Counted from the whole stretch's first letter, positions 8,144-39,005 are shown. The stretch: 62,790 bases of DNA, filler included, from an uncultured Methanosarcinales archaeon (GCA_964608065.1; 8 parts of 8 records of this genome joined end to end with filler, not necessarily neighbours in it); one strand, 5' to 3'. The notes: generated from the sequence alone by a model not told the origin. Made by a program: numbers and translations.

Positions 8144-8243
8144 NNNNNNNNNNNNNNNNNNNNNNNNNNNNNNNNNNNNNNNNNNNNTTAATTAATTAAN
8201 NNNNNNNNNNNNNNNNNNNNNNNNNNNNNNNNNNNNNNNNNNN
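8144..8243. other. Artificial contig linker (N44-TTAATTAATTAA-N44); same at 16368-16467, 24439-24538, 32447-32546, 40352-40451, 48183-48282, 55875-55974
   Basis: Identical 100-nt N blocks carrying a six-frame stop linker; contig lengths decrease monotonically. Confidence 0.98.
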
Positions 8244-8295
8244 TTTAATTTTATAACATTTTTTAAGGTTATTTTTAATTTTATTTTAAAAAATT

Positions 8296-8331
<36 letters not shown>

Positions 8332-8362
8332 GAAAAAACATATATACTTAGTTTTTATTTAT

Positions 8363-8623
8363 TTATCTATAATAAATATAATCATGATGCTGTAAATCTT
8401 CAAAAATTATAATGTTTTTCTCCAGCTTAAATATCAAAACAAAATGACCTACATGAACTCTCTTAAACTCCTTCATATTATATCTTAAATTCTTATAATG
8501 TTCTACACTATCAGAATTTATCACTTCTTCAATTTTTCTTATAACTTTCTCGTACAATATTTTTCTTTTTTTTACTAATTTATTTAGAATCTTCTTTAAG
8601 CTTGGCTTAATTTCATAATTCAT
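8363..8623 (-). CDS. RelE/ParE/YafQ-family toxin
   Basis: 86 aa basic protein, HYKNLRY..KRVHVGHFVLIF..HHDYIY; downstream of antitoxin. Confidence 0.85.
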   Translation of the reverse strand: MNYEIKPSLKKILNKLVKKRKILYEKVIRKIEEVINSDSVEHYKNLRYNMKEFKRVHVGHFVLIFKLEKNIIIFEDLQHHDYIYYR

Positions 8624-8625
8624 TT

Positions 8626-8865
8626 TTAATTTTCAATTATTTTTCTAAGCTCTTTAATGTTATTAAACTTAATCCCTTTTTGTTTATCTATTTTTAACAG
8701 TCTTTCTTTATATTCAGGTCTTAATTCAGGTTCAAGAAGTTCTTCTTCAAATTTATTTATCACTAGATTAATAGCATCAGATTTATTTTTTAACCCATAT
8801 TTCCCTTTTACAATAGTCAATACTCTATCTTGATTATCTCCTAAACTTACAATTGCTTGTACCAT
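8626..8865 (-). CDS. DUF2683-like antitoxin
   Basis: MVQAIV..RVLTIVKGKYGLKNKSDAIN..EPELRPEY; paired with toxin; GAGGTGA RBS. Confidence 0.8.
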   Translation of the reverse strand: MVQAIVSLGDNQDRVLTIVKGKYGLKNKSDAINLVINKFEEELLEPELRPEYKERLLKIDKQKGIKFNNIKELRKIIEN

Positions 8866-8979
8866 CTTGATTCACCTCATTATAATTTATAATAAAATAT
8901 AATAAATTATTATATAAACCTTTCGGTTTAGACATTCTTTTAATTAACTAAAATTCTCAAAAATACCAATAAATATATA

Positions 8980-9104
8980 TTAGTACTAAATAAATACTTA
9001 ATTAGTACTACTCATTATAGAAAGAAAGAAAAAAATGCTATAAAAAAGAAAATATTTATATATTAGTACTGATTACTTACTATTAAAATAATAAATTAGT
9101 ACTA
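8980..9104. promoter_or_regulatory. Four TTAGTACT(A) palindromic operator-like boxes near TATA elements
   Basis: Copies at 8980, 9002, 9063, 9096, upstream of the AbrB-type gene. Confidence 0.6.
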
Positions 9105-9116
9105 TTTTACGCAAAA

Positions 9117-9281
9117 ATGAAAGTTGTTCTAAACAAGAACCAGTACAAGATAACTATTCCTAAAGAGCTTGCCGAAGAGAATGGATGGGGTCCTGGCACT
9201 AAGATAAGATTTGTTGAAGATCTAGATGGAAGAATTTTTTTGAAAGTTACAGATAAAAAACCCCTTAAAAGAAAAAAATGA
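9117..9281 (+). CDS. AbrB/MazE/SpoVT-family DNA-binding protein (54 aa, absent from ORF track)
   Basis: MKVVLNKNQYKITIPKELAEENGWGPGTKIRFVEDLDGRIFLK; ATGA overlap with next gene. Confidence 0.85.
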   Translation: MKVVLNKNQYKITIPKELAEENGWGPGTKIRFVEDLDGRIFLKVTDKKPLKRKK

Positions 9282-10687
9282 ATGATAAAAACATAATGAA
9301 AAAAAGGGAAAACGAAAAGGATGAAAAAATGAATGAAAAAGAATTCAAAGTTATTTTGCAAGAAGGGGAAGGGCTTAAAATAGAATTCAAAGAATCTTTT
9401 GATAAGTCCATTGCTAAAGATATCGTAGCTTTTGCTAATTCTACAGGAGGAAGAATTTTCTTAGGGATTACTGACAAAAGAATTGTTAAAGGGATTGAAA
9501 TAACAAATAAGCTGAAATCACAGATTCAGGATTTGGCTAATAATTGTGATCCTTCGATTAAAGTTGAATTAAAGCAACTGGAGGATATTTTAATTATTGA
9601 AATTAAAGAAGGGAAAGATAAACCTTACAAATGCAGGGATGGTTTTTACCTAAGAGAAGGAGCCAACTCTAAAAAATTATCACGTAATGAACTATTAAAG
9701 CTAGTTGTTGGCTTAGGAAAAGTTAAATTCGATGAACAAATAAACAATGACTTTAATTTTCCTAATGACTTTGATAAAGAGAGATTTTCAGAATTCCTGA
9801 AAAAAATGGGTATTTCTAAAGTTATTTCTACAAAAGAGATTCTAACCAATCTTTCTCTTGGAGCCTCTATAGATAAAAGATTTAGATTAAACAATGCTGG
9901 TATTTTGTTATTTGCGAAAAACCCTGAAAGATTTATTAGGCAAAATTTTATTAGTTGTGTTTTGTATAAGGGCAAAGAAAGATTGAAGATTATTGACAGG
10001 AAAGATTTCAAGAATGATTTATTAACAAATTATGAAGATGGAATCAGCTTTCTTAAACAGCATCTAAGAGTAGAGTATATTATAAAAGGGACAGGGCCAA
10101 GAGAAGAAAAATTTGAATTGCCTGAAGAAGCATTAAGAGAATCTTTGCTCAATGCAATCATTCACAGAGACTATTTTGAAAAAGGATTTGGAATCTTTGT
10201 AGAAATTTTTGATGATAGGTTAGAAATAACTAATAAAGGAAAACTGCTTTTTGACAAAAAGAAATTAGGAAAGATAAGTTTTCCAAGAAATCCAATCCTT
10301 TTTGACGTTTTCTACAGAATTGGCTTAATTGAAAAAGTAGGTAGTGGAATAAATAGGATCAAGAGTTTAATTAAAAAAAGAGGACTGGAAGTCAGATTTA
10401 AGATAGATGATTTTTTCAGAGTTGTTTTCTATAGGTCTGGGGTAAGCAAAGCAAAAGACACTGTAAAAGACACTGTAAAAGACACTGTAAAATTGTTATC
10501 TAAAAATGAAAGGCTTATTTTAGAAGAGATGAGGAAAAATCCTAAGATTACGTCAGAAGAATTATCGCATTTACTAAACATAAACATCAGGAATACAAAG
10601 AAGAATATTGAAAAATTGAAACAAAAAGATTTGCTAAGAAGAATTGGAAGTGCAAAAGGAGGACATTGGGAAGTCACTGAAAAATGA
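9278..10687 (+). CDS. Schlafen/AlbA_2 + HATPase_c_4 + wHTH protein (copy 1)
   Basis: EFKES..AFANSTGG..EALRESLLNAIIHRDY..EKVGSG..IGSAKGGHW; 12-bp tandem repeat (DTVK)x3. Confidence 0.9.
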   Translation: MNDKNIMKKRENEKDEKMNEKEFKVILQEGEGLKIEFKESFDKSIAKDIVAFANSTGGRIFLGITDKRIVKGIEITNKLKSQIQDLANNCDPSIKVELKQLEDILIIEIKEGKDKPYKCRDGFYLREGANSKKLSRNELLKLVVGLGKVKFDEQINNDFNFPNDFDKERFSEFLKKMGISKVISTKEILTNLSLGASIDKRFRLNNAGILLFAKNPERFIRQNFISCVLYKGKERLKIIDRKDFKNDLLTNYEDGISFLKQHLRVEYIIKGTGPREEKFELPEEALRESLLNAIIHRDYFEKGFGIFVEIFDDRLEITNKGKLLFDKKKLGKISFPRNPILFDVFYRIGLIEKVGSGINRIKSLIKKRGLEVRFKIDDFFRVVFYRSGVSKAKDTVKDTVKDTVKLLSKNERLILEEMRKNPKITSEELSHLLNINIRNTKKNIEKLKQKDLLRRIGSAKGGHWEVTEK

Positions 10688-12039
10688 ATGATAAAAACAT
10701 AATGAAAAAAAGGGAAAACGAAAAAACAGAATTCAAAGAGTCACTACATCTAAAAGACGAGATAGGAATAGCTGTATCAGCGTTTGCAAACAAAAAAGGC
10801 GGCAGATTAATTATAGGTGTAAGTGATGATGGTAAAGTTAAAGGGATACAATCCGGAAAAAATACAATAGAAGAATTAGCCAATTATATTAAAATAAATA
10901 CAGACCCAAAAATATATCCTACTATACAATCTGAAGATAGATTAATAATAATAGAAGTTAAAGAATCCAGTGAAAAACCGGTTTTCTTCAAGGGAACTGC
11001 CTATATTAGGATAGGCAAAAGCAGCCATAAGCTAAGTTCATCTGAAATAAGGAGATTAGTAAAAGAAAGCAAAAAGAGTTATTGGGACGAACAACCTTGT
11101 GAAGAATCCAGCTTAGAAGATATCGATAATAGTAAAGTAAGATGGTACTTAGAGCAAAGGGAAAAGCACAGAAATGTATCTAAAAAAATTAAAATTTCAT
11201 TGAATAAATTTTTGGAGAATATTAAAGCTGTTAAAGATAGAACATTAACAAATGCCGGTATTTTATTCTTTGGAAAAAATCCTTTGATAAAGATATCTTG
11301 TGCTCAGCTTAGACTTGTAAAAATAAAAGGAAGGGAAATAAGCGGAACAATTCTTGATAGATTAGACTGCAACGGAACTTTATGGGAAATGGTTGAGCAA
11401 GCTGAGAATTTTCTAAAGGAGCATATTAATTTCATGGGTTTTAGAACTGCAAAAAGTTTCCAGAGAGAGGATAAGTTCGATATTCCAATTGAAGCTTTAA
11501 GAGAGCTGATAATCAATGCTTTGATACATAGAGACTATGAAACAACTGCAGATGTTAGAGTATTTGTTTTTGACGACAGAGTTGAGATAATCAATCCAGG
11601 CAGTTTCCCAAAAGGAGTGACTCCAAAGATGCCTTTGCACAAACCTGTGAATAAAGTGCTTTCACAGTACATGTATGACATAGGTTTTATTGAAAAATAT
11701 GGCTCAGGAATAGTTAATGTAAGATCCCTGTTAAAGGAAAATGGGAACAGAGATTTAGAATACGTTCTTCATGAGATTGAGACAAAAGCAATTGTTTATT
11801 CCCAGATTGACTATACTGAAAAGGTCACTGAAAAGGTCACTGAAAAGGTCACTGAAAACCAAAGAAAGATCCTCAACAGCATACTCAAAGATAAAACAAC
11901 AACTATCAAGGAAATGTCTAGGATAGTAGGTATTTCAGAGAGGAAAATCAAGGAGAATATTTCCAAATTAAAGAAAAAAAAGGTGCTTAAGAGGATTGGC
12001 TCTGCAAAAGGAGGACATTGGGTTGTTTTAAAACAATGA
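10684..12039 (+). CDS. Schlafen/AlbA_2 + HATPase_c_4 + wHTH protein (copy 2)
   Basis: EFKES..AFANKKGG..EALRELIINALIHRDY..EKYGSG..IGSAKGGHW; (TEKV)x3 repeat. Confidence 0.9.
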   Translation: MNDKNIMKKRENEKTEFKESLHLKDEIGIAVSAFANKKGGRLIIGVSDDGKVKGIQSGKNTIEELANYIKINTDPKIYPTIQSEDRLIIIEVKESSEKPVFFKGTAYIRIGKSSHKLSSSEIRRLVKESKKSYWDEQPCEESSLEDIDNSKVRWYLEQREKHRNVSKKIKISLNKFLENIKAVKDRTLTNAGILFFGKNPLIKISCAQLRLVKIKGREISGTILDRLDCNGTLWEMVEQAENFLKEHINFMGFRTAKSFQREDKFDIPIEALRELIINALIHRDYETTADVRVFVFDDRVEIINPGSFPKGVTPKMPLHKPVNKVLSQYMYDIGFIEKYGSGIVNVRSLLKENGNRDLEYVLHEIETKAIVYSQIDYTEKVTEKVTEKVTENQRKILNSILKDKTTTIKEMSRIVGISERKIKENISKLKKKKVLKRIGSAKGGHWVVLKQ

Positions 12040-12173
12040 TTAATAAAACAATAAGGCAAGGATTTGTATTGTTTTTCCTAGTTCTTGCTTTAGTTTCCTC
12101 TGTAAAAGCAGTTTCAGTTTCACATACAGCAACTGCTATTTACAATAGAGCTAATAAGGAAAAAGGTGAATAA
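12036..12173 (+). pseudogene. Orphan signal-peptide mini-ORF (45 aa), paralog of the N-terminus of the 14042 secreted protein
   Basis: MINKTIRQGFVLFFLVLALVSSVKAVSVSHTATAIYN...; 24 bp identical to 14134-14157. Confidence 0.75.
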
Positions 12174-13226
12174 ATGAAAAAAGCAGTAAAAAAAAAGTAT
12201 AATAAAATATTCAGAAATATAGTAAATCACATTGAACAATCAAAACTAAGAGCTTTTGCTGAAATAAATAAGGCGCTTTTACATGCTTATTGGAACATAG
12301 GAAGGGAACTAAGCAAAAACGTTTCTTATGGAAAATCGGTTGTGGATAAGTTATCCAGAGATTTGAGATTAAAATACCCTCGTGCTAGAGGTTATTCTAT
12401 CAGAAACTTATGGAATATGAAGAGATTTTATGAGAGTTACCAAAAACTCCAGTCACTGTCTGGAGAATCTAAAAAACTGCAGGCACTGCCTGCAGAATTG
12501 CTTCAGGTCTCATGGACAAATCATGTACTCATACTAGATAAGACAAGCTCGGATGAAGAAAAGCAATTTTATTTAAAGATGTGCCTAAAGGAAAGATGGA
12601 GTTCAAGGGGGTTGGAACGTCAACTTGATTCCTCATTATTTGAAAGATACATGCTCGCAGACAAGCCAGAAAAAGTAACTGCATTAATACCAAAACATGA
12701 AACTAAAGATCTAAGCAAACATTTCAAAGATGAATATGTTTTGGAATTCTTAAACCTAAGAAAAGAATATTCAGAACAAGAGCTTGAAAAATCAATTTTA
12801 GATAACCTTAGAGATTTCTTTCTAGAGTTTGGAAAATCATTTACTTTTGTTGGTTCACAGTATGTCATTGATATTGGAAGAAGAGAAAACAAAATTGACT
12901 TATTATTTTACCATAGGGAACTAAGGTGTTTAGTAGCAGTTGACCTTAAAATTGGAGATTTTAAAGCTTCATATGTAGGTCAGATGCAAAAATATCTTGC
13001 AGCTCTAGATGAAAAAATAAGACTATCTGAAGAAAAGGAAAGTGTTGGTTTAATACTTTGCAAATCCAAAAATCATGAAGAGGTAAGATTTACTCTTGCT
13101 AAGACACTATCACCTGTAAAAGTTGCAACCTACAAAACAAAGTTGCCTGACAGGAAATTGATAATCAAAAGGTTAGAACAATTTAAGATTAAAGATGATG
13201 ATTTTATTAAAAAAAAAAAAGGTTGA
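12174..13226 (+). CDS. YhcG/DUF1016 family PD-(D/E)xK nuclease-domain protein
   Basis: AYWNIG..RNLWNMKRFY..SWTNH..KDEYVLEFL..IDLLFYHRELRCLVAVDLK..GQM..GLILCK. Confidence 0.93.
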   Translation: MKKAVKKKYNKIFRNIVNHIEQSKLRAFAEINKALLHAYWNIGRELSKNVSYGKSVVDKLSRDLRLKYPRARGYSIRNLWNMKRFYESYQKLQSLSGESKKLQALPAELLQVSWTNHVLILDKTSSDEEKQFYLKMCLKERWSSRGLERQLDSSLFERYMLADKPEKVTALIPKHETKDLSKHFKDEYVLEFLNLRKEYSEQELEKSILDNLRDFFLEFGKSFTFVGSQYVIDIGRRENKIDLLFYHRELRCLVAVDLKIGDFKASYVGQMQKYLAALDEKIRLSEEKESVGLILCKSKNHEEVRFTLAKTLSPVKVATYKTKLPDRKLIIKRLEQFKIKDDDFIKKKKG

Positions 13227-13235
13227 AAACTTAAT

Positions 13236-13385
13236 ATGAAATTTAAACTAAACAGAGGACTTGTATTGTTTTTCCTAGTTCTTGCTTTAGTCTCCTCTGT
13301 AAAAGCAGTATCAGTTTCACACCCAGCATCTGCTGTTTATAATATACCTAAAGAAAAAATGGTGAAAAATGCATATAGAAGTTGA
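13236..13385 (+). pseudogene. Second orphan signal-peptide mini-ORF (49 aa)
   Basis: MKFKLNRGLVLFFLVLALVSSVKAVSVSHPASAVYN...; 80/88 nt identical to 12060-12147. Confidence 0.75.
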
Positions 13386-13903
13386 TCAAAGCGGAAAAAT
13401 TGAAGACTATTTAGATACTGTTGTAGCTTTTAGAAATAAAGAACAATACACAGTTTTACTAAAAAGGAAAATTAAAAACGAAATTTTAACTGAATATAGA
13501 AATAAACACAAAGATATTCACTATAGATTATTTGCAATTCTTATCNNNNNNNNNNNNNNNNNNNNNNNNNNNNNNNNNNNNNNNNNNNNNNNNNNNNNNN
13601 NNNNNNNNNNNNNNNNNNNNNNNNNNNNNNNNNNNNNNNNNNNNNTATCATTGTATTAAGAATTATCAGGATAAAGTCCAATTAATTGTAATTGATGATG
13701 AATATGAAAAAAGAGGAATTGACATTAAAAAACACCTTCTAAGATTCATTTGGAAAGATTATCCTAACTTTGACAAGAAGTTGATTAGGTTTTCCAGGAT
13801 TGGGAAAAAATCTAATGCCCACAGATTGGCATATCAGACATTTATTGGTAAATTAGCTCCAAACAAAATCATAACTGCAGATGAGGTTAAGAAATTAATA
13901 TGA
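13369..13903 (+). CDS. Putative RNase H-fold / DUF3800-like protein (spans an internal N gap)
   Basis: N-terminal IEVDQSG (cf. hYhDESG), central IVIDDEY, C-terminal KSNAHRLA; N gap 13546-13644. Confidence 0.55.
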
Positions 13904-13909
13904 GATTAA

Positions 13910-14006
13910 GAAAAAATCAGGGGATGTTACATAGTAACATAGTATACGCCTACAGCGAGTCTAGCAGATGCTTTCTCACAGTCAGCGCAGCACCCATCAT
14001 ACTACC
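13910..14006 (-). ncRNA. Candidate small structured RNA, convergent with the DUF3800-like gene
   Basis: GC-enriched ~90-nt island; minus-strand TTTATATA box at 14030-14023; ATGTTAC/GTAACAT hairpin; ends in a T-run. Confidence 0.4.
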
Positions 14007-14041
14007 AACAAAGAATAACTACTATATAAATTTTACTAAAA

Positions 14042-16367
14042 ATGGTTAATAAAAACAAGGCTAAGATATTGCAGATTTTCACTAAACATATTCCTATAGT
14101 TCTGATAGTATTAACACTACTACCTCATGCTCTAGCAGTTTCAGTTTCACATACAGCTTCAAACATTTACAATGGAACATTTTCAGGAGGAAACTATTAT
14201 TTCCCTGTAAATTTAACAGTTGACACTAGTGATTTACATGTTGATGGTACTGGTGGTGCTGTTGGTATTGGAACTGTAGAGCCAAAGTCAGGATTTAAGT
14301 TAGATGTAAGAGGTGCAATAATTGCTTCAGGTGAAAGTAATTTAAGCTTAGGCTGCGGCAACATAACAGGAGCTACAAGTGATTTATGTACTTTAGTTGA
14401 TACTGGTGGAAGTGGTATTACAAATGGAACAGATGCTACTTTCGCTAAAGTTAACATGACTGAACTAAATGTAACTGGCTTATGTGTTGCAGAAGACTCA
14501 TTAATAACAATGGAAGATGGAACTAAAAAAATAATAACAGAAATTAAACCAGGAGAGCAAGTTTTAAGCTTAGATGAAAAAACAAATAAAATTGTTTCAA
14601 ACAAAGTTAAAGCATTACTGGATATGGACATAAAGCCTGTCTTCAACCTTACAACCAAATCAGGAAGATCAGTAAAAACAACTGGAAACCACCCATATTT
14701 AACTCCAGAAGGGTGGGTGAAAGTAACTGAGTTAAATGTTGGTGATGAAATAGCAGTTCCAGAATTAGTGGGCTTGACGAGCGAAGCGAGGAAACCCACG
14801 AAGGTGCCAGCTGACTTCTCAGCTGCTGGAAACCACCCATATTTAACTCCAGAAGGGTGGGTGAAAGTAACAGAATTAAGCATTGGAACAAAAATTGCAG
14901 TACCTAAAATAGAAAACAATCATTTAAGAAACTTTACGGTTGCGGAGTCTCTGAAATTTGCAAAGCAAATTTCTGAGAAACCAGAAATCAGCAAAGCTGA
15001 TTTCTCAGTTCAACGTAAAGGTTTAGAAACCACTTTAGTGGTGCCAGAAGCTTTGCTTCTAAGCATCTATGATTTCAAAAACATATCAACTAATTCAGGA
15101 GTAGAATACACCTTAACAGCATCCTGCTTTTTGAAATCATCCTCTCTTGACCAAATTGCACAACCTAAATGCAAAGCTAATGCAAAATACGGAATATCTT
15201 TGCTGTGTGGCGCTAATTTCTCTGCTTTGGATTGCAGTTCAGGAGAGAATTTGTATATCGGAAATATCTCAACTCTTTGTTTAAGAATTTCAAACTCCTC
15301 TCTAATTTTGGACTCTGTAGAACCGCAAATCTTAGCCATTGTTCCTGCATTCTTATTAAACTCCTTAATCAGATATGGCAATGCAACTAATCTCAACTTG
15401 TCTTCAAAAAATAAATCATTAGTCTTGCCCTTGCCAATAATAGCTGCAAATAAAACAGTAGCATCTACAACTAATTCCATTTATTTTGCCTCACGAAAGC
15501 TTTTAGCTACTGCTTCAGAAATCTTATCAGTAAACTCTTTAGCATCTTCATCTGAGATTTTAATTTTGGATGAAAGCGTTTTAAGCCTCCTTAACTTTTC
15601 AGCTTTATCAAATATTGCTCTCCTAGCTACCTCAGACCAATCCAGCTTAAACTCGTGCATACTTTTCTCTAATTCATCTGGTACAGATATTGTTATTGTT
15701 CCCATTTTAATATCACCAGAGCATAATAATGAAAATGACTATTTAAATGTTATGGAAAACAATAATATCAATTTAAAAGATAATAATCCCACCCACCCAC
15801 CCCAAACCACATCCTTAATAGCAATATCAACATTGGAGCAAAGCGATATCTCTTTGAAATCAGAGATTTCTGATGTCTTCTGGGATGAAATTACAAGTAT
15901 AGAATACATCGGAGAGGAGCACGTCTATGACTTAATGATAGAAAACACCCATAACTTTATTGCAAACGATATTATTGCTCATAATACATATATTAGTGAT
16001 AATGCAAGCTTTGACAGCGGAACATTATATGTAGATGCAGCAGATAATAGGGTCGGCATCGGGACGACTAGTCCTGATGCCATATTAGAAATAGTAGGTG
16101 TAAATAGTTTAGACCCAATTCTTTTAGATAAGGGAACTGGAGAAACTGGAATTAAGTTTACTTTTGATGGAACAAACTATGTTAGTTATATTAGGACGGT
16201 TGAGGCAGGTACAATCGCAGATAATTATATGACTTTTGGTGTTTCTCAAGGTGCTAATACAAATTCTTTAGAAGTGATGAGGTTAAAAGGCGACGGCAAC
16301 GTCGGCATCGGCACAACAGCTCCAAAATCTTTATTACAAGTTGAAGATGGTAATGTAACATTTAACA
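14042..16367 (+). CDS. Large secreted/surface protein with VGIGT (tail-fibre-like) repeats and an intein; 3' truncated
   Basis: Signal peptide ending ALA|VS; three (G/N)xVGIGT repeats; many NxT sequons; intein at aa 148-648. Confidence 0.85.
15067..15480 (-). CDS. PIN-domain (VapC-like) toxin nested antisense in the intein
   Basis: LVVDATVLFAA..E..KDIPYFALAL..IWSREDDFKKQ..VYSTPEL. Confidence 0.88.
   Translation of the reverse strand: MELVVDATVLFAAIIGKGKTNDLFFEDKLRLVALPYLIKEFNKNAGTMAKICGSTESKIREEFEILKQRVEIFPIYKFSPELQSKAEKLAPHSKDIPYFALALHLGCAIWSREDDFKKQDAVKVYSTPELVDMFLKS
15481..15705 (-). CDS. CopG/RHH-type (VapB-like) antitoxin nested antisense in the intein
   Basis: MGTITISVPDEL..DWSEVARRAI; TAA directly abuts the toxin ATG; GGTGA RBS at 15717-15713. 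Confidence 0.88.
   Translation of the reverse strand: MGTITISVPDELEKSMHEFKLDWSEVARRAIFDKAEKLRRLKTLSSKIKISDEDAKEFTDKISEAVAKSFREAK
15740..15755 (-). promoter_or_regulatory. TATA promoter of the nested TA operon
   Basis: Minus-strand AACATTTAAATA, same as promoter-like motifs at ~42197 and ~44596. Confidence 0.6.
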
Positions 16368-16558
16368 NNNNNNNNNNNNNNNNNNNNNNNNNNNNNNNNN
16401 NNNNNNNNNNNTTAATTAATTAANNNNNNNNNNNNNNNNNNNNNNNNNNNNNNNNNNNNNNNNNNNNATATAACAACTAATATATAAAACTTTCGGTTGT
16501 TATATAGAGAAAAAAAAAAAAACAATAATCAAATTCAATAATAATAAAAGAAGGAATA

Positions 16559-35768: not shown

Positions 35769-36668
35769 ATGAAATCTGTTAAACAAATAAAAATCACAAA
35801 AAACATGAAAGTCAATGATTTAGTCAAAGAAATGTCTAATGCTGGTGTCTTCGGAGGAGGAAGACTGGCAAAATCTGTAAATATAACAAAAAAGATGATT
35901 AATGATAAACAATGTAAAGTTTTCCTAGGAGCAGCTGGAGCATTAGTCCCTGCTGGAATGAGAGAAATATTAATTGATATGTTAAACAAAGGATATATTG
36001 ATGTTTTTGTCACAACAGGAGCTATGCTAACTCATGACTTAGTTGAAGCTTTAGGATTTAAACATTATCAGGGCAGTTGTAATGTTGATGATAAAAAACT
36101 GTTCAAACAAGGTATTGATCGCATTTACGAATCATTTATGTCGAACAAAGTCTATGAAGATTTAGAACTTTTTTTTTCAAAGAATTTCAATAAATTAAAA
36201 ACAAAAGAAAGCATCAAAGATTTTCTATGGGAAATAGGGAAATTAATTAACAAAAAATCAATTTTAAACACATGCTATAAAAAGAAAATTCCAATATTTT
36301 GCCCAGGTATTGCAGATTCTGGAATTGGATTGATGATTTGGGGAAATTTAGCAAAAGGCAAGTCATGTAATGTTAAAGCATTTGAGGATTTGAAAGAAAT
36401 ATTAGATATAGCATGGACAGCAAAGAAAACAGGAGTTATCTACCTTGGAGGCGGAGTGCCAAAAAACTACATACAGCAGGCAATGCAGTTCTCTAAAGGA
36501 GCTTCATATGGAGTACAAATCACAATGGACAGGCCTGAACCTGGAGGAAGCAGCGGAGCAGAGCTAAGGGAGGGTATCAGTTGGGGTAAATTAAGCAATA
36601 AAGCAGAGTTTGTAAATTTAATCTGTGATATAACAATTGCTCTGCCAATAATTTATTCATCACTATAA
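35769..36668 (+). CDS. Deoxyhypusine synthase-like protein 1
   Basis: GGGVPKNY, GGSSGA, EGISWGK, DITIALP. Confidence 0.9.
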   Translation: MKSVKQIKITKNMKVNDLVKEMSNAGVFGGGRLAKSVNITKKMINDKQCKVFLGAAGALVPAGMREILIDMLNKGYIDVFVTTGAMLTHDLVEALGFKHYQGSCNVDDKKLFKQGIDRIYESFMSNKVYEDLELFFSKNFNKLKTKESIKDFLWEIGKLINKKSILNTCYKKKIPIFCPGIADSGIGLMIWGNLAKGKSCNVKAFEDLKEILDIAWTAKKTGVIYLGGGVPKNYIQQAMQFSKGASYGVQITMDRPEPGGSSGAELREGISWGKLSNKAEFVNLICDITIALPIIYSSL

Positions 36669-36722: not shown

Positions 36723-39005
36723 ATGATAATATGTAAAGATGGTAAAAGGGAAGGTGAAATGAGAAATGGTTTTGAAGATGGTTTTATACCACTAGAACCA
36801 TTAGACTTGTCTAAAATCAAAAATTTTGATGATTTAGCTAAATCTATGTCTCATACTGCTTTTGCTGGACGTGCTCTAGGTGAAGCAGTAGATGTTTTTG
36901 AAGCAATGGTCAAAGACCCTGATTGTTTTGTAGTCCTTACATTATCAGGAGCGATGACTCCTGCAAAAATGGGCTTGATTGTATGCGATATGATAGATAA
37001 AGGAATGGTTAATGCAGTTGTCTCAACTGGATCTTTAATGACTCATGGATTTGTAGAAGCACAAGGAATGACTCATTTTAAATATGAACTAGGAAAAATG
37101 AATGATAAAGAGTTGTACTATAAAGGCTATGACAGAATTTATGATATAATTGAATTAGAGAAGAATCTAGATGATACTGAGTTGATATTTAGGGAGATTA
37201 TGAAAGATTTAAATCTTGATGAAGTTTTGTGCAGCAGAAGGATTCTTGAAGAATGCGGAAAATGGTTAAAGAAAAATACAAAAGGAAGAGGTATATTAAA
37301 AAGCGCTTTTGAAAAGAAAGTTCCAGTCTATGTTCCTGCATTCACAGACTGTGAGATGGGGCTTGATTTTGGTATTTATAATCTTAGAAAAGAAAAATTC
37401 AAGGAAAAACCATTTAGATTCGATCCTTTCCTTGATCTAAACCATTTTACAGAATTAATCAAAAAACAAAAGAAACTAGGAATCTTTACAATTGGCGGTG
37501 GTGTTCCAAGAAACTGGGCACAGCAAGTTGCCCCTTATATTGATATAATTAACAAAAGAATGGAAAACCAATGTCCTGATTGTGAGGGCAAAGGTTGTAA
37601 AAAGTGCGGAAATAAAGGTTATTTGAAAGATAGAGGAGTTCCTGGAACAATGTATACTTATGGTGTAAGGATATGTCCTGAGCCGGTGCATTGGGGAGGA
37701 TTATGTTTGCACGGAGATACAAAAATAGAAATCCCTAGAAACCTAGAAGAAGCTCCTGAAGGAGTACCTATTAGAAATCTTGCTGGAATGTCTAATATTC
37801 CCGTCTATTCTTTCGATAGTACTAAAAAAAGAATATGTATATCTAATATAAGACATGTGTTAAAAACAGGAAAAAAGAAGCTCTACAAGATCAAATTTTC
37901 TTGGATCTCTGGTTGGGGCCAAAAAGAAAAAAAACTAAACAGCAGATATATAGTTGCTTCAGCTGATCATAAATTTCTTATGCGTGATGGTAAATACAAA
38001 AAGGTTTCTGAATTAAAGTCAAATGATCGGTTAATGCCTTTTAATACTTATTATAAAGCAGATACGCATGGGGATTATAGGTTTATTAGTCTGAATAACG
38101 GAAAAAGAATTGCTGAACACCATCTTATAGCACAGGCAATGTTAGAGGAGCCTTTTGATGTAGATGACGTTGTTCATCATAAAGATCATAATACTCTAAA
38201 CAATGATATCAATAATTTAATTGTTATGAATAAAAGAAAACATATAAGTTATCACCGCTCTGTTGAGACCTTGGAAACAAGGAAAAAACGAGCTAAAACC
38301 CTTTCAGAGATTTCTGATCCGGAAAAAATGAGAAAAAAATCAATGAAGTTCTGGAATAATCTCACTAAAGGGGAATATGAATTGTTATGTTTAAATAGAA
38401 AGGAAGTAGCATTAAATCCCAAGGAAAGAATTAGAATATCTAATGTATCAAAGACTTACTGGAATAAGTTATCAAAAGAACAAAAAAAAATAAGGCTAAT
38501 AAACGCGCATAATGCTACAAAACAAAGATGGTCAGAAATGGATCCTGAAGTAAGATCCAAGTTAGTATTAAATGAAAAAAATCCTAAATTCATAAAAGGG
38601 ATTGCAGAAGATAAAGTAAAAGATGCATTAATTAAAGAGAATGGGTCTATAAAGAACGCAGCAAAAAAGCTTGATGTTAGTGTGAAAGTATTAAACAAAA
38701 GAAGAGAAATATATGGAATAAACAGGGATTGGATATCCCAAAATTGTATAGAAAATCATTTTGTTACATCTGTAGAATATTATGGTGAAGACGAAACTTA
38801 TGATATTACAGTGGACAACACCCACAACTTTGTCGCAAATGGGATTGTTGTATCAAATAGTGGCTGTACTTATAGTGAAGGTGTTTCATGGGGAAAATTC
38901 AAACCTAAATCAGAAGGTGGAAGATGGGCAGAAGTTTTAGCTGATGCTACTATAGCTTGGCCAATTATTGTCAAAGCTGTTATGGAAAGACTAAATATTA
39001 AATAA
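36723..39005 (+). CDS. Deoxyhypusine synthase-like protein 2, intein-containing
   Basis: LSGAMTPA, GYDRIYD, GGGVPRNW, WGGL|SGCT, EGVSWGK, DATIAWP. Confidence 0.9.
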   Translation: MIICKDGKREGEMRNGFEDGFIPLEPLDLSKIKNFDDLAKSMSHTAFAGRALGEAVDVFEAMVKDPDCFVVLTLSGAMTPAKMGLIVCDMIDKGMVNAVVSTGSLMTHGFVEAQGMTHFKYELGKMNDKELYYKGYDRIYDIIELEKNLDDTELIFREIMKDLNLDEVLCSRRILEECGKWLKKNTKGRGILKSAFEKKVPVYVPAFTDCEMGLDFGIYNLRKEKFKEKPFRFDPFLDLNHFTELIKKQKKLGIFTIGGGVPRNWAQQVAPYIDIINKRMENQCPDCEGKGCKKCGNKGYLKDRGVPGTMYTYGVRICPEPVHWGGLCLHGDTKIEIPRNLEEAPEGVPIRNLAGMSNIPVYSFDSTKKRICISNIRHVLKTGKKKLYKIKFSWISGWGQKEKKLNSRYIVASADHKFLMRDGKYKKVSELKSNDRLMPFNTYYKADTHGDYRFISLNNGKRIAEHHLIAQAMLEEPFDVDDVVHHKDHNTLNNDINNLIVMNKRKHISYHRSVETLETRKKRAKTLSEISDPEKMRKKSMKFWNNLTKGEYELLCLNRKEVALNPKERIRISNVSKTYWNKLSKEQKKIRLINAHNATKQRWSEMDPEVRSKLVLNEKNPKFIKGIAEDKVKDALIKENGSIKNAAKKLDVSVKVLNKRREIYGINRDWISQNCIENHFVTSVEYYGEDETYDITVDNTHNFVANGIVVSNSGCTYSEGVSWGKFKPKSEGGRWAEVLADATIAWPIIVKAVMERLNIK
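37704..38858 (+). mobile_element. Intein (385 aa) with HNH homing endonuclease
   Basis: CLHGDTKI start; ASADHKF block B; EHH..VHHKDHNTLNNDINNL..H..YH; YDITVDNTHNFVANGIVVSN + Ser+1. Confidence 0.92.

Follow-up and report, generated by a model that had tools for sequence, protein, structure and literature searches.

A repeated gene-start module between accessory genes upstream of a fibre-type surface gene in an archaeal contig

In a stretch of 62,790 nt of draft DNA from an uncultured archaeon (GCA_964608065.1; hereafter the window), two short open reading frames (mini-ORFs c1 and c2) lie between accessory genes that precede a fibre-type surface gene starting at 14042. Each of them encodes a signal-peptide-like stretch followed by AVSVSH(T/P)A..(I/V)YN, and beyond this leader both continue through a similar ribosome-binding spacer to the start codon of a different gene. 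We hold, with moderate confidence, that the two mini-ORFs are not independent genes and instead represent two copies of one module of ~150 nt. Our preferred explanation, to which we give roughly even weight for and against, is that this spacer module came from the 5′ end of a fibre gene and that recombination duplicated it while defence-type genes were being inserted upstream of the fibre gene. The parts of the locus that carry this argument are as follows.

12036..12173, + strand: mini-ORF c1 (45 aa), whose ATG overlaps the stop of the preceding accessory gene, A2
12059..12187, + strand: module copy 1 (leader remnant, ~30-nt spacer with GGTGA, ATG of the next gene)
12174..13226, + strand: cargo 1, a YhcG/DUF1016 nuclease of the PD-(D/E)XK type (PF06250, E 1.5e-51; PF17761, E 1e-37)
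13220..13368, + strand: full spacer module M2, 149 nt (right junction J2 at 13220–13259, leader remnant, GGTGA spacer)
13236..13385, + strand: mini-ORF c2 (49 aa), overlapping the start of cargo 2 by 17 nt
13369..13903, + strand: cargo 2, family unassigned and interrupted by a gap; one gene or two
13883..13924, + strand: J3, stump of a third module, with an ATG at 13900 (MRLRKNQG...)
14042..16367, + strand: intact fibre-type surface gene with a signal-peptide-like start, a conserved N-terminal motif and VGIGT repeats, running off the contig end

Anatomy of the repeat

Both mini-ORFs exist as a first-pass annotation of this DNA had described them, from the ATG at 12036 to a stop at 12173 and from 13236 to 13385. 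The c1 peptide consists of a K/R-rich start, a hydrophobic core, VKA, AVSVSHTATAIYN and eight unrelated residues, and the c2 peptide of MKFKLNRG, a hydrophobic core, VKA, AVSVSHPASAVYN and 13 unrelated residues. BLASTN self-comparison aligned the two copies over 130 columns at 85% identity (12059–12187 versus 13256–13382; E 2.6e-33), and a repeat search delimited a core with 90% identity over 96 nt (12059–12154 versus 13256–13351). In codon alignment 79 of 87 nt were identical (80 of 88 by the earlier count) and the differences comprised four synonymous and four non-synonymous changes, in agreement with the earlier remark that half of them are synonymous. All four amino-acid changes are conservative, and the ratio of non-synonymous to synonymous differences (pN/pS) is 0.38, which with only eight differences is not significantly below 1. 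The 24 nt reported as identical between copy 1 and the intact gene were found again (12107–12130 and 14134–14157), together with a three-way repeat of 43 nt at 84% identity that starts at 12107, 13304 and 14134 (14134–14176 in the intact gene); c1 and the corresponding segment of the intact gene (c3) also aligned by BLASTN (E 4e-5). A six-frame motif search of all 62,790 nt returned exactly three sites, namely c1, c2 and the intact gene. The tblastn search that had been proposed for further leader copies, run on the window with c1 and c2, gave no fourth site, and neither it nor BLASTN self-comparison detected another copy of the module in the 62.8 kb.

The likeness between the two orphans extends beyond the leader. 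From YN to the next ATG (29–31 nt) they align at 25 of 32 columns, a score that none of 5,000 shuffles reached, and the alignment score of this post-YN spacer is 15, against 8 for the best of 33 other gene-upstream regions in the window. Homology had been said to stop exactly after YN; this is correct with respect to the intact gene only, as between the orphans the match runs on to 12187 and 13382. Because c1/c2 homology continues past YN through the spacer to the next ATG, the two copies share a single ancestral junction, and the break at YN is one event that was copied, not a set of recurrent independent breaks. The identical codon at which the copies are broken, previously taken as the sign of a fixed recombination site, loses that meaning, given that both orphans carry the whole junction by descent. 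The similar GGTGA spacer noted after both orphans is present, such that the left junctions of both cargo genes read YN, ~30 nt, GGTGA and ATG.

The right junctions of the two cargo genes are alike as well (AGGTTnAnAAnTTAATATGAnATT). Junction J2, which begins in the final codons of cargo 1 and extends into the start of c2, recurs after cargo 2 at 13883–13924 with 32 of 41 positions identical (equalled by 1 of 500 shuffles); this second occurrence, J3, opens a 49-codon ORF at 13900, and its likeness to the module ends after 13924. The following segment, 13925–14133, which includes the signal-peptide region of the intact gene, showed no similarity to the module (442 of 1,000 shuffles aligned equally well). 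The spacer module of ~149 nt is present in full once (13220–13368); copy 1 lacks its left end, and a third occurrence is reduced to a stump.

Origin of the leader sequence

With residues 1–147 of the intact protein as query, HMMER yielded 196 proteins at E ≤ 1e-3. Among the 150 relatives listed of these 196, 44 contain a signal peptide or hydrophobic stretch, small residues and the pattern x6-[SGNQ]H-x-A-x-x-[IV]-x2-3-G-x-F within their first 200 residues, as exemplified by AATVSHPASQI..GTF and AADPGHPASSISAGTF. The closest among the relatives listed (P0010 and P0014, both singletons in the cluster look-up) read PASAIYNGTF(A/S)GG.YYFP, and H37, A39, G45, F47 and G50 were invariant in a ten-sequence alignment (alignment A1). 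The intact gene carries the conserved AVSVSHTASNIYNGTF..G.Y.FP motif, within which the shared 43 nt fall, and has the full N-terminal domain followed by VGIGT repeats, as expected of a family member. Judging from this conservation, AVSVSH..IYN(GTF) opens the mature N-terminal domain that is conserved in a large family of archaeal fibre proteins. The leader parts of the mini-ORFs stop at YN, just short of the invariant G-x-F, and lack G45, F47 and G50; because they end before this motif they are fragments, not members of the family. No remnant of the missing GTF... part was found elsewhere in the window. That the orphans share their N terminus with the secreted protein at 14042 is accurate for the conserved motif (43 nt) and inaccurate for the signal-peptide part, which is unrelated in DNA.

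The profile of the first ~200 positions of the family (alignment A1) matched β-helix structures of Bdellovibrio MAT fibres (8ond, E 8.6e-9; 8ojn, E 8.1e-6), with the match covering profile positions ~71–194, that is, the VGIGT repeat region and not the N-terminal motif. MAT proteins are characterized in the excerpted text of PMC10769870 as trimeric adhesin fibres whose N-terminal domain is invariant and whose tips can be swapped, and by analogy the archaeal protein may be a host-attachment fibre. The likeness to the MAT adhesins lies in their solved β-helix fibre regions, whereas the AxVSH/ADPGH N-terminal motif of the archaeal proteins had no solved counterpart in the PDB profile search. A word-index search for relatives of the fibre N terminus gave a single match (P0001), in the VGIGT region only and not in the leader, and was set aside.

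A model for the growth of the array

From this anatomy we infer an order of events, a recombination route and a present function. The 5′ end of a fibre-adhesin paralogue, comprising the start codon, the signal-peptide-like region and the first 13 mature residues, would have been cut once after YN, and the cut end would have been fused to ~30 nt that supplied a start codon together with a GGTGA ribosome-binding site. Duplication of the module would have followed, while accessory genes of the defence type gathered directly upstream of the fibre gene and on the same strand. Recombination within the module would be the most economical route, either by Campbell-type single-crossover insertion of a circle that carries a gene together with a copy of the module or by unequal crossing-over; in both cases the insert would end up with a module on either side, and no dedicated recombinase would be required. 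The module of the fibre gene itself would later have been mostly replaced (13925–14133) by a TATA-like element of its own and an unrelated signal peptide, leaving the 41-nt stump J3. At present the module would most likely act only as an intergenic expression signal for the next gene, to which it would provide the ribosome-binding site, translational coupling and perhaps, in copy 2, a TATA-like box made up by the YN codons; the encoded peptides would then be by-products.

Several points weigh against this model. In both mini-ORFs the start codon and the open frame persist, as do the K/R-rich start and the hydrophobic core of the peptide, with conservative changes between them, and given these intact frames and conservative changes the peptides may be functional. 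Similar junctions to the left and right of two cargo genes that are unrelated are what would be expected of cassettes with conserved ends, and simple duplication alone does not explain different genes behind the same junction. Only 2.3 copies are available, all from one locus, and a scaffold gap of 100 N close to copy 2 may conceal further copies.

Gene order of the contig

The window is composed of draft contigs (~8 kb each) chained by artificial linkers, and adjacency across the linkers is not genomic. Seven identical linkers (N44-TTAATTAATTAA-N44) occur at intervals of ~8 kb, and the contigs run in roughly decreasing size. The GC content of the window is 31%, and the Pfam matches elsewhere in it are archaeal (ribosomal S19e and L31e, exosome subunits, proteasome alpha, Pop5, Spt5, archease and deoxyhypusine synthase). 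The remaining features of the locus contig, including toxin–antitoxin (TA) genes, are listed below.

8144–8243 and 16368–16467: linkers beside the locus contig (N44-TTAATTAATTAA-N44)
8244..16367: draft contig carrying both mini-ORFs (8.1 kb), joined to its neighbours only via artificial linkers
First in the contig gene order, − strand: ParE-like/DUF2683 pair
9117..9281, + strand: AbrB/MazE-type small DNA-binding protein (PF04014, E 7.5e-8), which opens the same-strand array
9278..10687, + strand: accessory gene A1 with Schlafen/AlbA_2, HATPase_c_4 and winged helix–turn–helix (wHTH) domains (Pfam), its start overlapping the preceding stop
10684..12039, + strand: accessory gene A2, a paralogue of A1 (Schlafen-AlbA_2/HATPase_c_4/wHTH; Pfam)
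14483..15985, + strand: intein within the fibre gene (PF14890, E 5.2e-30 over aa 155–648)
15067..15705, − strand: VapB-like antitoxin (15481–15705) and PIN toxin (15067–15480) antisense in the intein (PF10130, E 3.9e-18)

The AbrB-type gene, A1, A2, c1, cargo 1, c2 and cargo 2 all lie on the + strand, with stops and starts that overlap or abut; c1 is coupled to A2 by ATGA and to cargo 1 by TAAATG. Between the end of cargo 2 and the secreted-protein gene at 14042 lie 138 nt of non-coding DNA, and in this GC-richer segment (13904–14041) no structure beyond chance was found (z −0.59 and −0.90). Cargo 1 corresponds to the PADLOC candidate defence gene PDC-S02 (E 2.6e-111), and A1 gave weak PADLOC matches to pAgo-associated profiles. 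Cargo 2 had no match in Pfam, NCBIfam or PADLOC and no significant PHROG match, and tblastn against plasmids was empty; its right part resembles whole hypothetical proteins of 91–106 aa in unnamed clusters (Atlas 0.96), and its left part gave weak leads only, also to unnamed clusters (Atlas 0.85). The 100-N scaffold gap at 13546–13645 lies within this gene, 160 nt past copy 2, and may conceal two genes or more module copies because the right part of cargo 2 matches whole proteins of 91–106 aa. The frame of c1 is shared with the YhcG nuclease gene, with one TAA between them (12171–12176), and read-through would give a leader–nuclease fusion; the shared frame could be a coincidence, for which the chance is 1 in 3.

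Gene starts elsewhere in the array also bear traces of exchange. The segment 12003–12054, around the start of c1, aligns with 10650–10702 (equalled by none of 500 shuffles), mostly through the homologous 3′ ends of the A genes, and the 19 nt after the c1 ATG match the start of an A-type gene at 15 of 19 positions; because these first 19 nt resemble an A-gene start, c1 is a mosaic. The A1 and A2 proteins are 39% identical (171 of 438 residues), yet the 45 nt spanning their starts are 100% identical (9274–9318 versus 10680–10724), an indication that gene starts in the array have recently undergone gene conversion or recombination. Both A genes also contain 12-nt tandem repeats just before the C-terminal wHTH domain (10460–10491, KDTV three times; 11815–11858, TEKV three times).

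The intein of the fibre gene

Position 14482 is the last of the N-extein and 15986 the first of the C-extein. The VapB-like/PIN pair sits antisense where the homing endonuclease of the intein would lie; a match of this pair to NF050799 (E 1.1e-6) was below the cut-off of that model. Over the 639 nt of the TA genes the intein sense frame contains no stop codon, compared with 20 and 14 in the other two plus frames, and after random synonymous recoding of the TA genes with the codon usage of the genome the sense frame stayed open in 21 of 5,000 trials. Because recoded TA genes so rarely leave the frame open, the open intein frame suggests selection that keeps the host gene readable. A limited search of the open-access literature found no description of a TA pair inside an intein. 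A direct repeat of 87 nt (83% identity; 14682–14768 and 14826–14912) duplicates the block-B region of the intein (GNHPYLTPEGWVKVTEL...). Elsewhere in the window, a second copy of deoxyhypusine synthase (36723–39002) carries an intein (PF14890, E 5.2e-15) and adjoins an intein-free copy (35769–36665).

Related loci

Scanning genome contigs with the alignment of the closest relatives gave 19 pattern matches, none of which was confirmed. A broader scan (alignment A4) gave 56 pattern matches and two confirmed loci (L001 and L002), both in metagenome-assembled genomes of Aenigmarchaeota, and neither of these two loci contains an orphan leader or a second array. In L002, two tandem fibre paralogues share 533 nt (upstream plus 5′ coding sequence) at 82% identity, with a ParE-like pair between them; beside these paralogues a DUF433/DUF5615 (PIN-like) pair lies between direct repeats of 138 nt (89% identity; 11750–11886 and 12684–12821), and downstream of the second paralogue lies an orphan copy, 43 nt long and 81% identical, of the 3′ end of the first (11622–11664). 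The L002 repeats resemble, in their duplicative architecture, the succession of module, cargo and module in the window. In all three loci (the window, L001 and L002) the fibre gene is directly preceded on its 5′ side by TA or defence-type genes of the same strand, a count too small to carry weight in genomes rich in TA genes.

Alternative explanations

Cassette capture, the mechanism put forward in the first-pass annotation, would have units of ribosome-binding site, cargo gene and new leader start integrate repeatedly at the 5′ coding end of the fibre gene, stacking defence genes and leaving the old leaders behind, either through a site-specific recombinase encoded elsewhere or through homology-driven capture. 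We consider it unlikely. It would account for the conservation of the junctions left and right of the two unrelated cargo genes, for the third leader stump after cargo 2 and for the same-strand, promoterless-looking and tightly coupled genes; cargo 1 is a candidate defence gene, TA or defence genes precede the family gene directly in three of three loci, and integrons have been reported in Archaea, including Aenigmatarchaeota and Nanoarchaeota, in the excerpted text of PMC9668308. The proposed unit survives to the extent that a spacer from a surface-gene leader separates packed same-strand accessory genes, with alike junctions and a third stump; its recurrent break does not, as the shared break was inherited. 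Nor was the surface gene restored by the same kind of exon each time, given that the signal peptide of the intact gene is unrelated to the leaders of the orphans. No recombinase or integrase domain was found in the 13 contig proteins or in 56 further ORFs (≥90 aa) of the window, including PF00589, the mark of the tyrosine recombinase expected beside such an array. Absence of a recombinase alone is a weak test, because the contig is only 8.1 kb long and clusters of attC sites lacking integron integrases (CALINs) by definition have no IntI. A search for attC core sites (RYYYAAC ... GTTRRRY) across 8244–16367 gave one pair per strand, at 14211–14305, which falls within the fibre gene; no cassette boundary had such a pair. 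The spacers contain no conserved single-strand hairpin: copy 1 folded better than shuffles on the minus strand (z −3.4) and copy 2 did not (z 0.59 and 0.07). An RNA gene as integration target was discarded, with no tRNA in the window and two sub-threshold chance matches to Rfam on the contig. Together with the absence of further module copies from the 62.8 kb, the lack of mini-ORF relatives in protein sets and the lack of a second array in the two related loci, these results speak against the designation of the locus as an integron-like accretion system; such a capture model is unsupported, and we assign it a low probability. In its most far-reaching form the module would be the attachment site of a gene-capture system at the protein-coding 5′ end of a fibre-adhesin gene, by which DPANN archaea would stack and exchange defence genes upstream of host-attachment fibres, each capture duplicating the leader and bringing a ready ribosome-binding site and possibly a TATA-like box in the YN codons, with the 138-nt repeats of L002 as a second instance. 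This form appears rather unlikely to us, and the present data fall short of a claim for a capture system.

The module could also have been exapted as a functional unit, either a small membrane or secreted peptide or an upstream ORF or promoter element that controls the next defence gene, which we regard as quite improbable. The intact ORFs with their conservative changes are consistent with such a role, as are the coupling of c1 to both A2 (ATGA) and cargo 1 (TAAATG), the overlap of c2 with cargo 2 and the abundance of TA genes at the locus. The layout of the mini-ORFs (N-terminal charge, one hydrophobic helix and a short polar tail) is presumably like that of type I TA membrane toxins. In c2, the VYN-I codons read GTTTATAATATA, a TATA-like element ~29 nt ahead of the ATG at 13369; this is the position at which TATA-like 8-mers peak in 38 upstream regions of the genome (−30 bin, 7 of 21 matches), but the c1 counterpart is a poor match (TTTACAATA). 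The peptide sequence, however, is wholly accounted for by an origin from the fibre-gene leader, and pN/pS is not significantly below 1. Homologues in other genomes, as a standalone small-peptide family would have, were absent from a set of 5.8 billion protein clusters (no candidate in the 26–86-aa class; 16 candidates in the longer class, none at E ≤ 10), which is weak evidence given that gene prediction in the source sets often misses small ORFs. An assembly artefact would reduce the repeat to a chimeric join at a repeated leader in a draft single-cell or metagenome assembly. The draft source, the linker-chained contigs and the 100-N gap 160 nt past copy 2 leave room for such an error, but both copies lie in one gap-free stretch (8244–13545), differ at 8 of 87 coding positions and by indels, unlike a collapsed or duplicated identical repeat, and every junction is a sensible overlap of start and stop; we therefore consider an artefact highly improbable.

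Significance

If the module is only a duplicated scar, as in our preferred explanation, the locus would be an example of defence and TA genes piling up at the 5′ flank of fibre genes in small symbiotic archaea, with insertions that recycle the start signals of the resident gene. If it were true that the module is a reusable capture site, it would constitute a platform that resembles an integron but is built on coding sequence and has no attC hairpins, and would bear on the exchange of defence genes in DPANN archaea, which have tiny genomes and few known mobile-element enzymes.

Comparison with known systems

A limited search of open-access text found no description of a leader-fragment array of this sort, and the locus was compared with described systems. 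Its same-strand, mostly single-gene cassettes correspond to the arrangement of integron and CALIN arrays. The likeness to integrons and archaeal CALINs, as far as the excerpted text of PMC9668308 describes them, extends to promoterless single-gene cassettes on one strand, a conserved spacer of ~60–150 nt and occurrence in DPANN archaea. The spacer here differs in being protein-coding leader DNA, and it has no conserved hairpin; R″/R′ core sites were absent from the boundaries and no IntI was found in the window.

SXT/R391-type integrative and conjugative elements (ICEs) supply a new 5′ end to the gene into which they insert, which stays functional, and they also occur in tandem arrays. The portion of PMC2791158 available to us describes their insertion in the 5′ end of prfC via near-identical sequences of element and chromosome, with direct repeats at the junctions. 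In the window, direct repeats flank cargo 1 and a stump follows cargo 2. SXT/R391 elements are ~100 kb long and have their own tyrosine integrase, whereas the inserts here are single genes of 0.5–1 kb and no integrase was found.

The closest described parallel, within the passages of PMC3150448 that were accessible, is provided by the arrays of orphan cdiA-CT/cdiI modules of systems for contact-dependent growth inhibition (CDI), and similarly by Rhs-CT arrays, in which fragments of a surface or secreted gene, bounded by one coding motif, are interleaved with small accessory genes. In the orphan cdiA-CT/cdiI arrays, as these passages report, homology to the full gene ends abruptly at VENN, and recombination there has been put forward as a way of reloading the main gene. 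In those arrays the orphans are fragments of the 3′ end and lie downstream of the main gene, each with its own toxin tip and cognate immunity gene, whereas the fragments here are 5′ leaders upstream of it. The genes between the leaders (a YhcG nuclease and an unassigned gene) are, unlike those of CDI and Rhs arrays, unrelated to the fibre gene, and there are two copies with one junction; moreover, the break lies inside the conserved N-terminal domain of the family and not at its edge. The locus, a member of none of the families compared, consists of duplicated gene-start fragments that flank inserted accessory genes.

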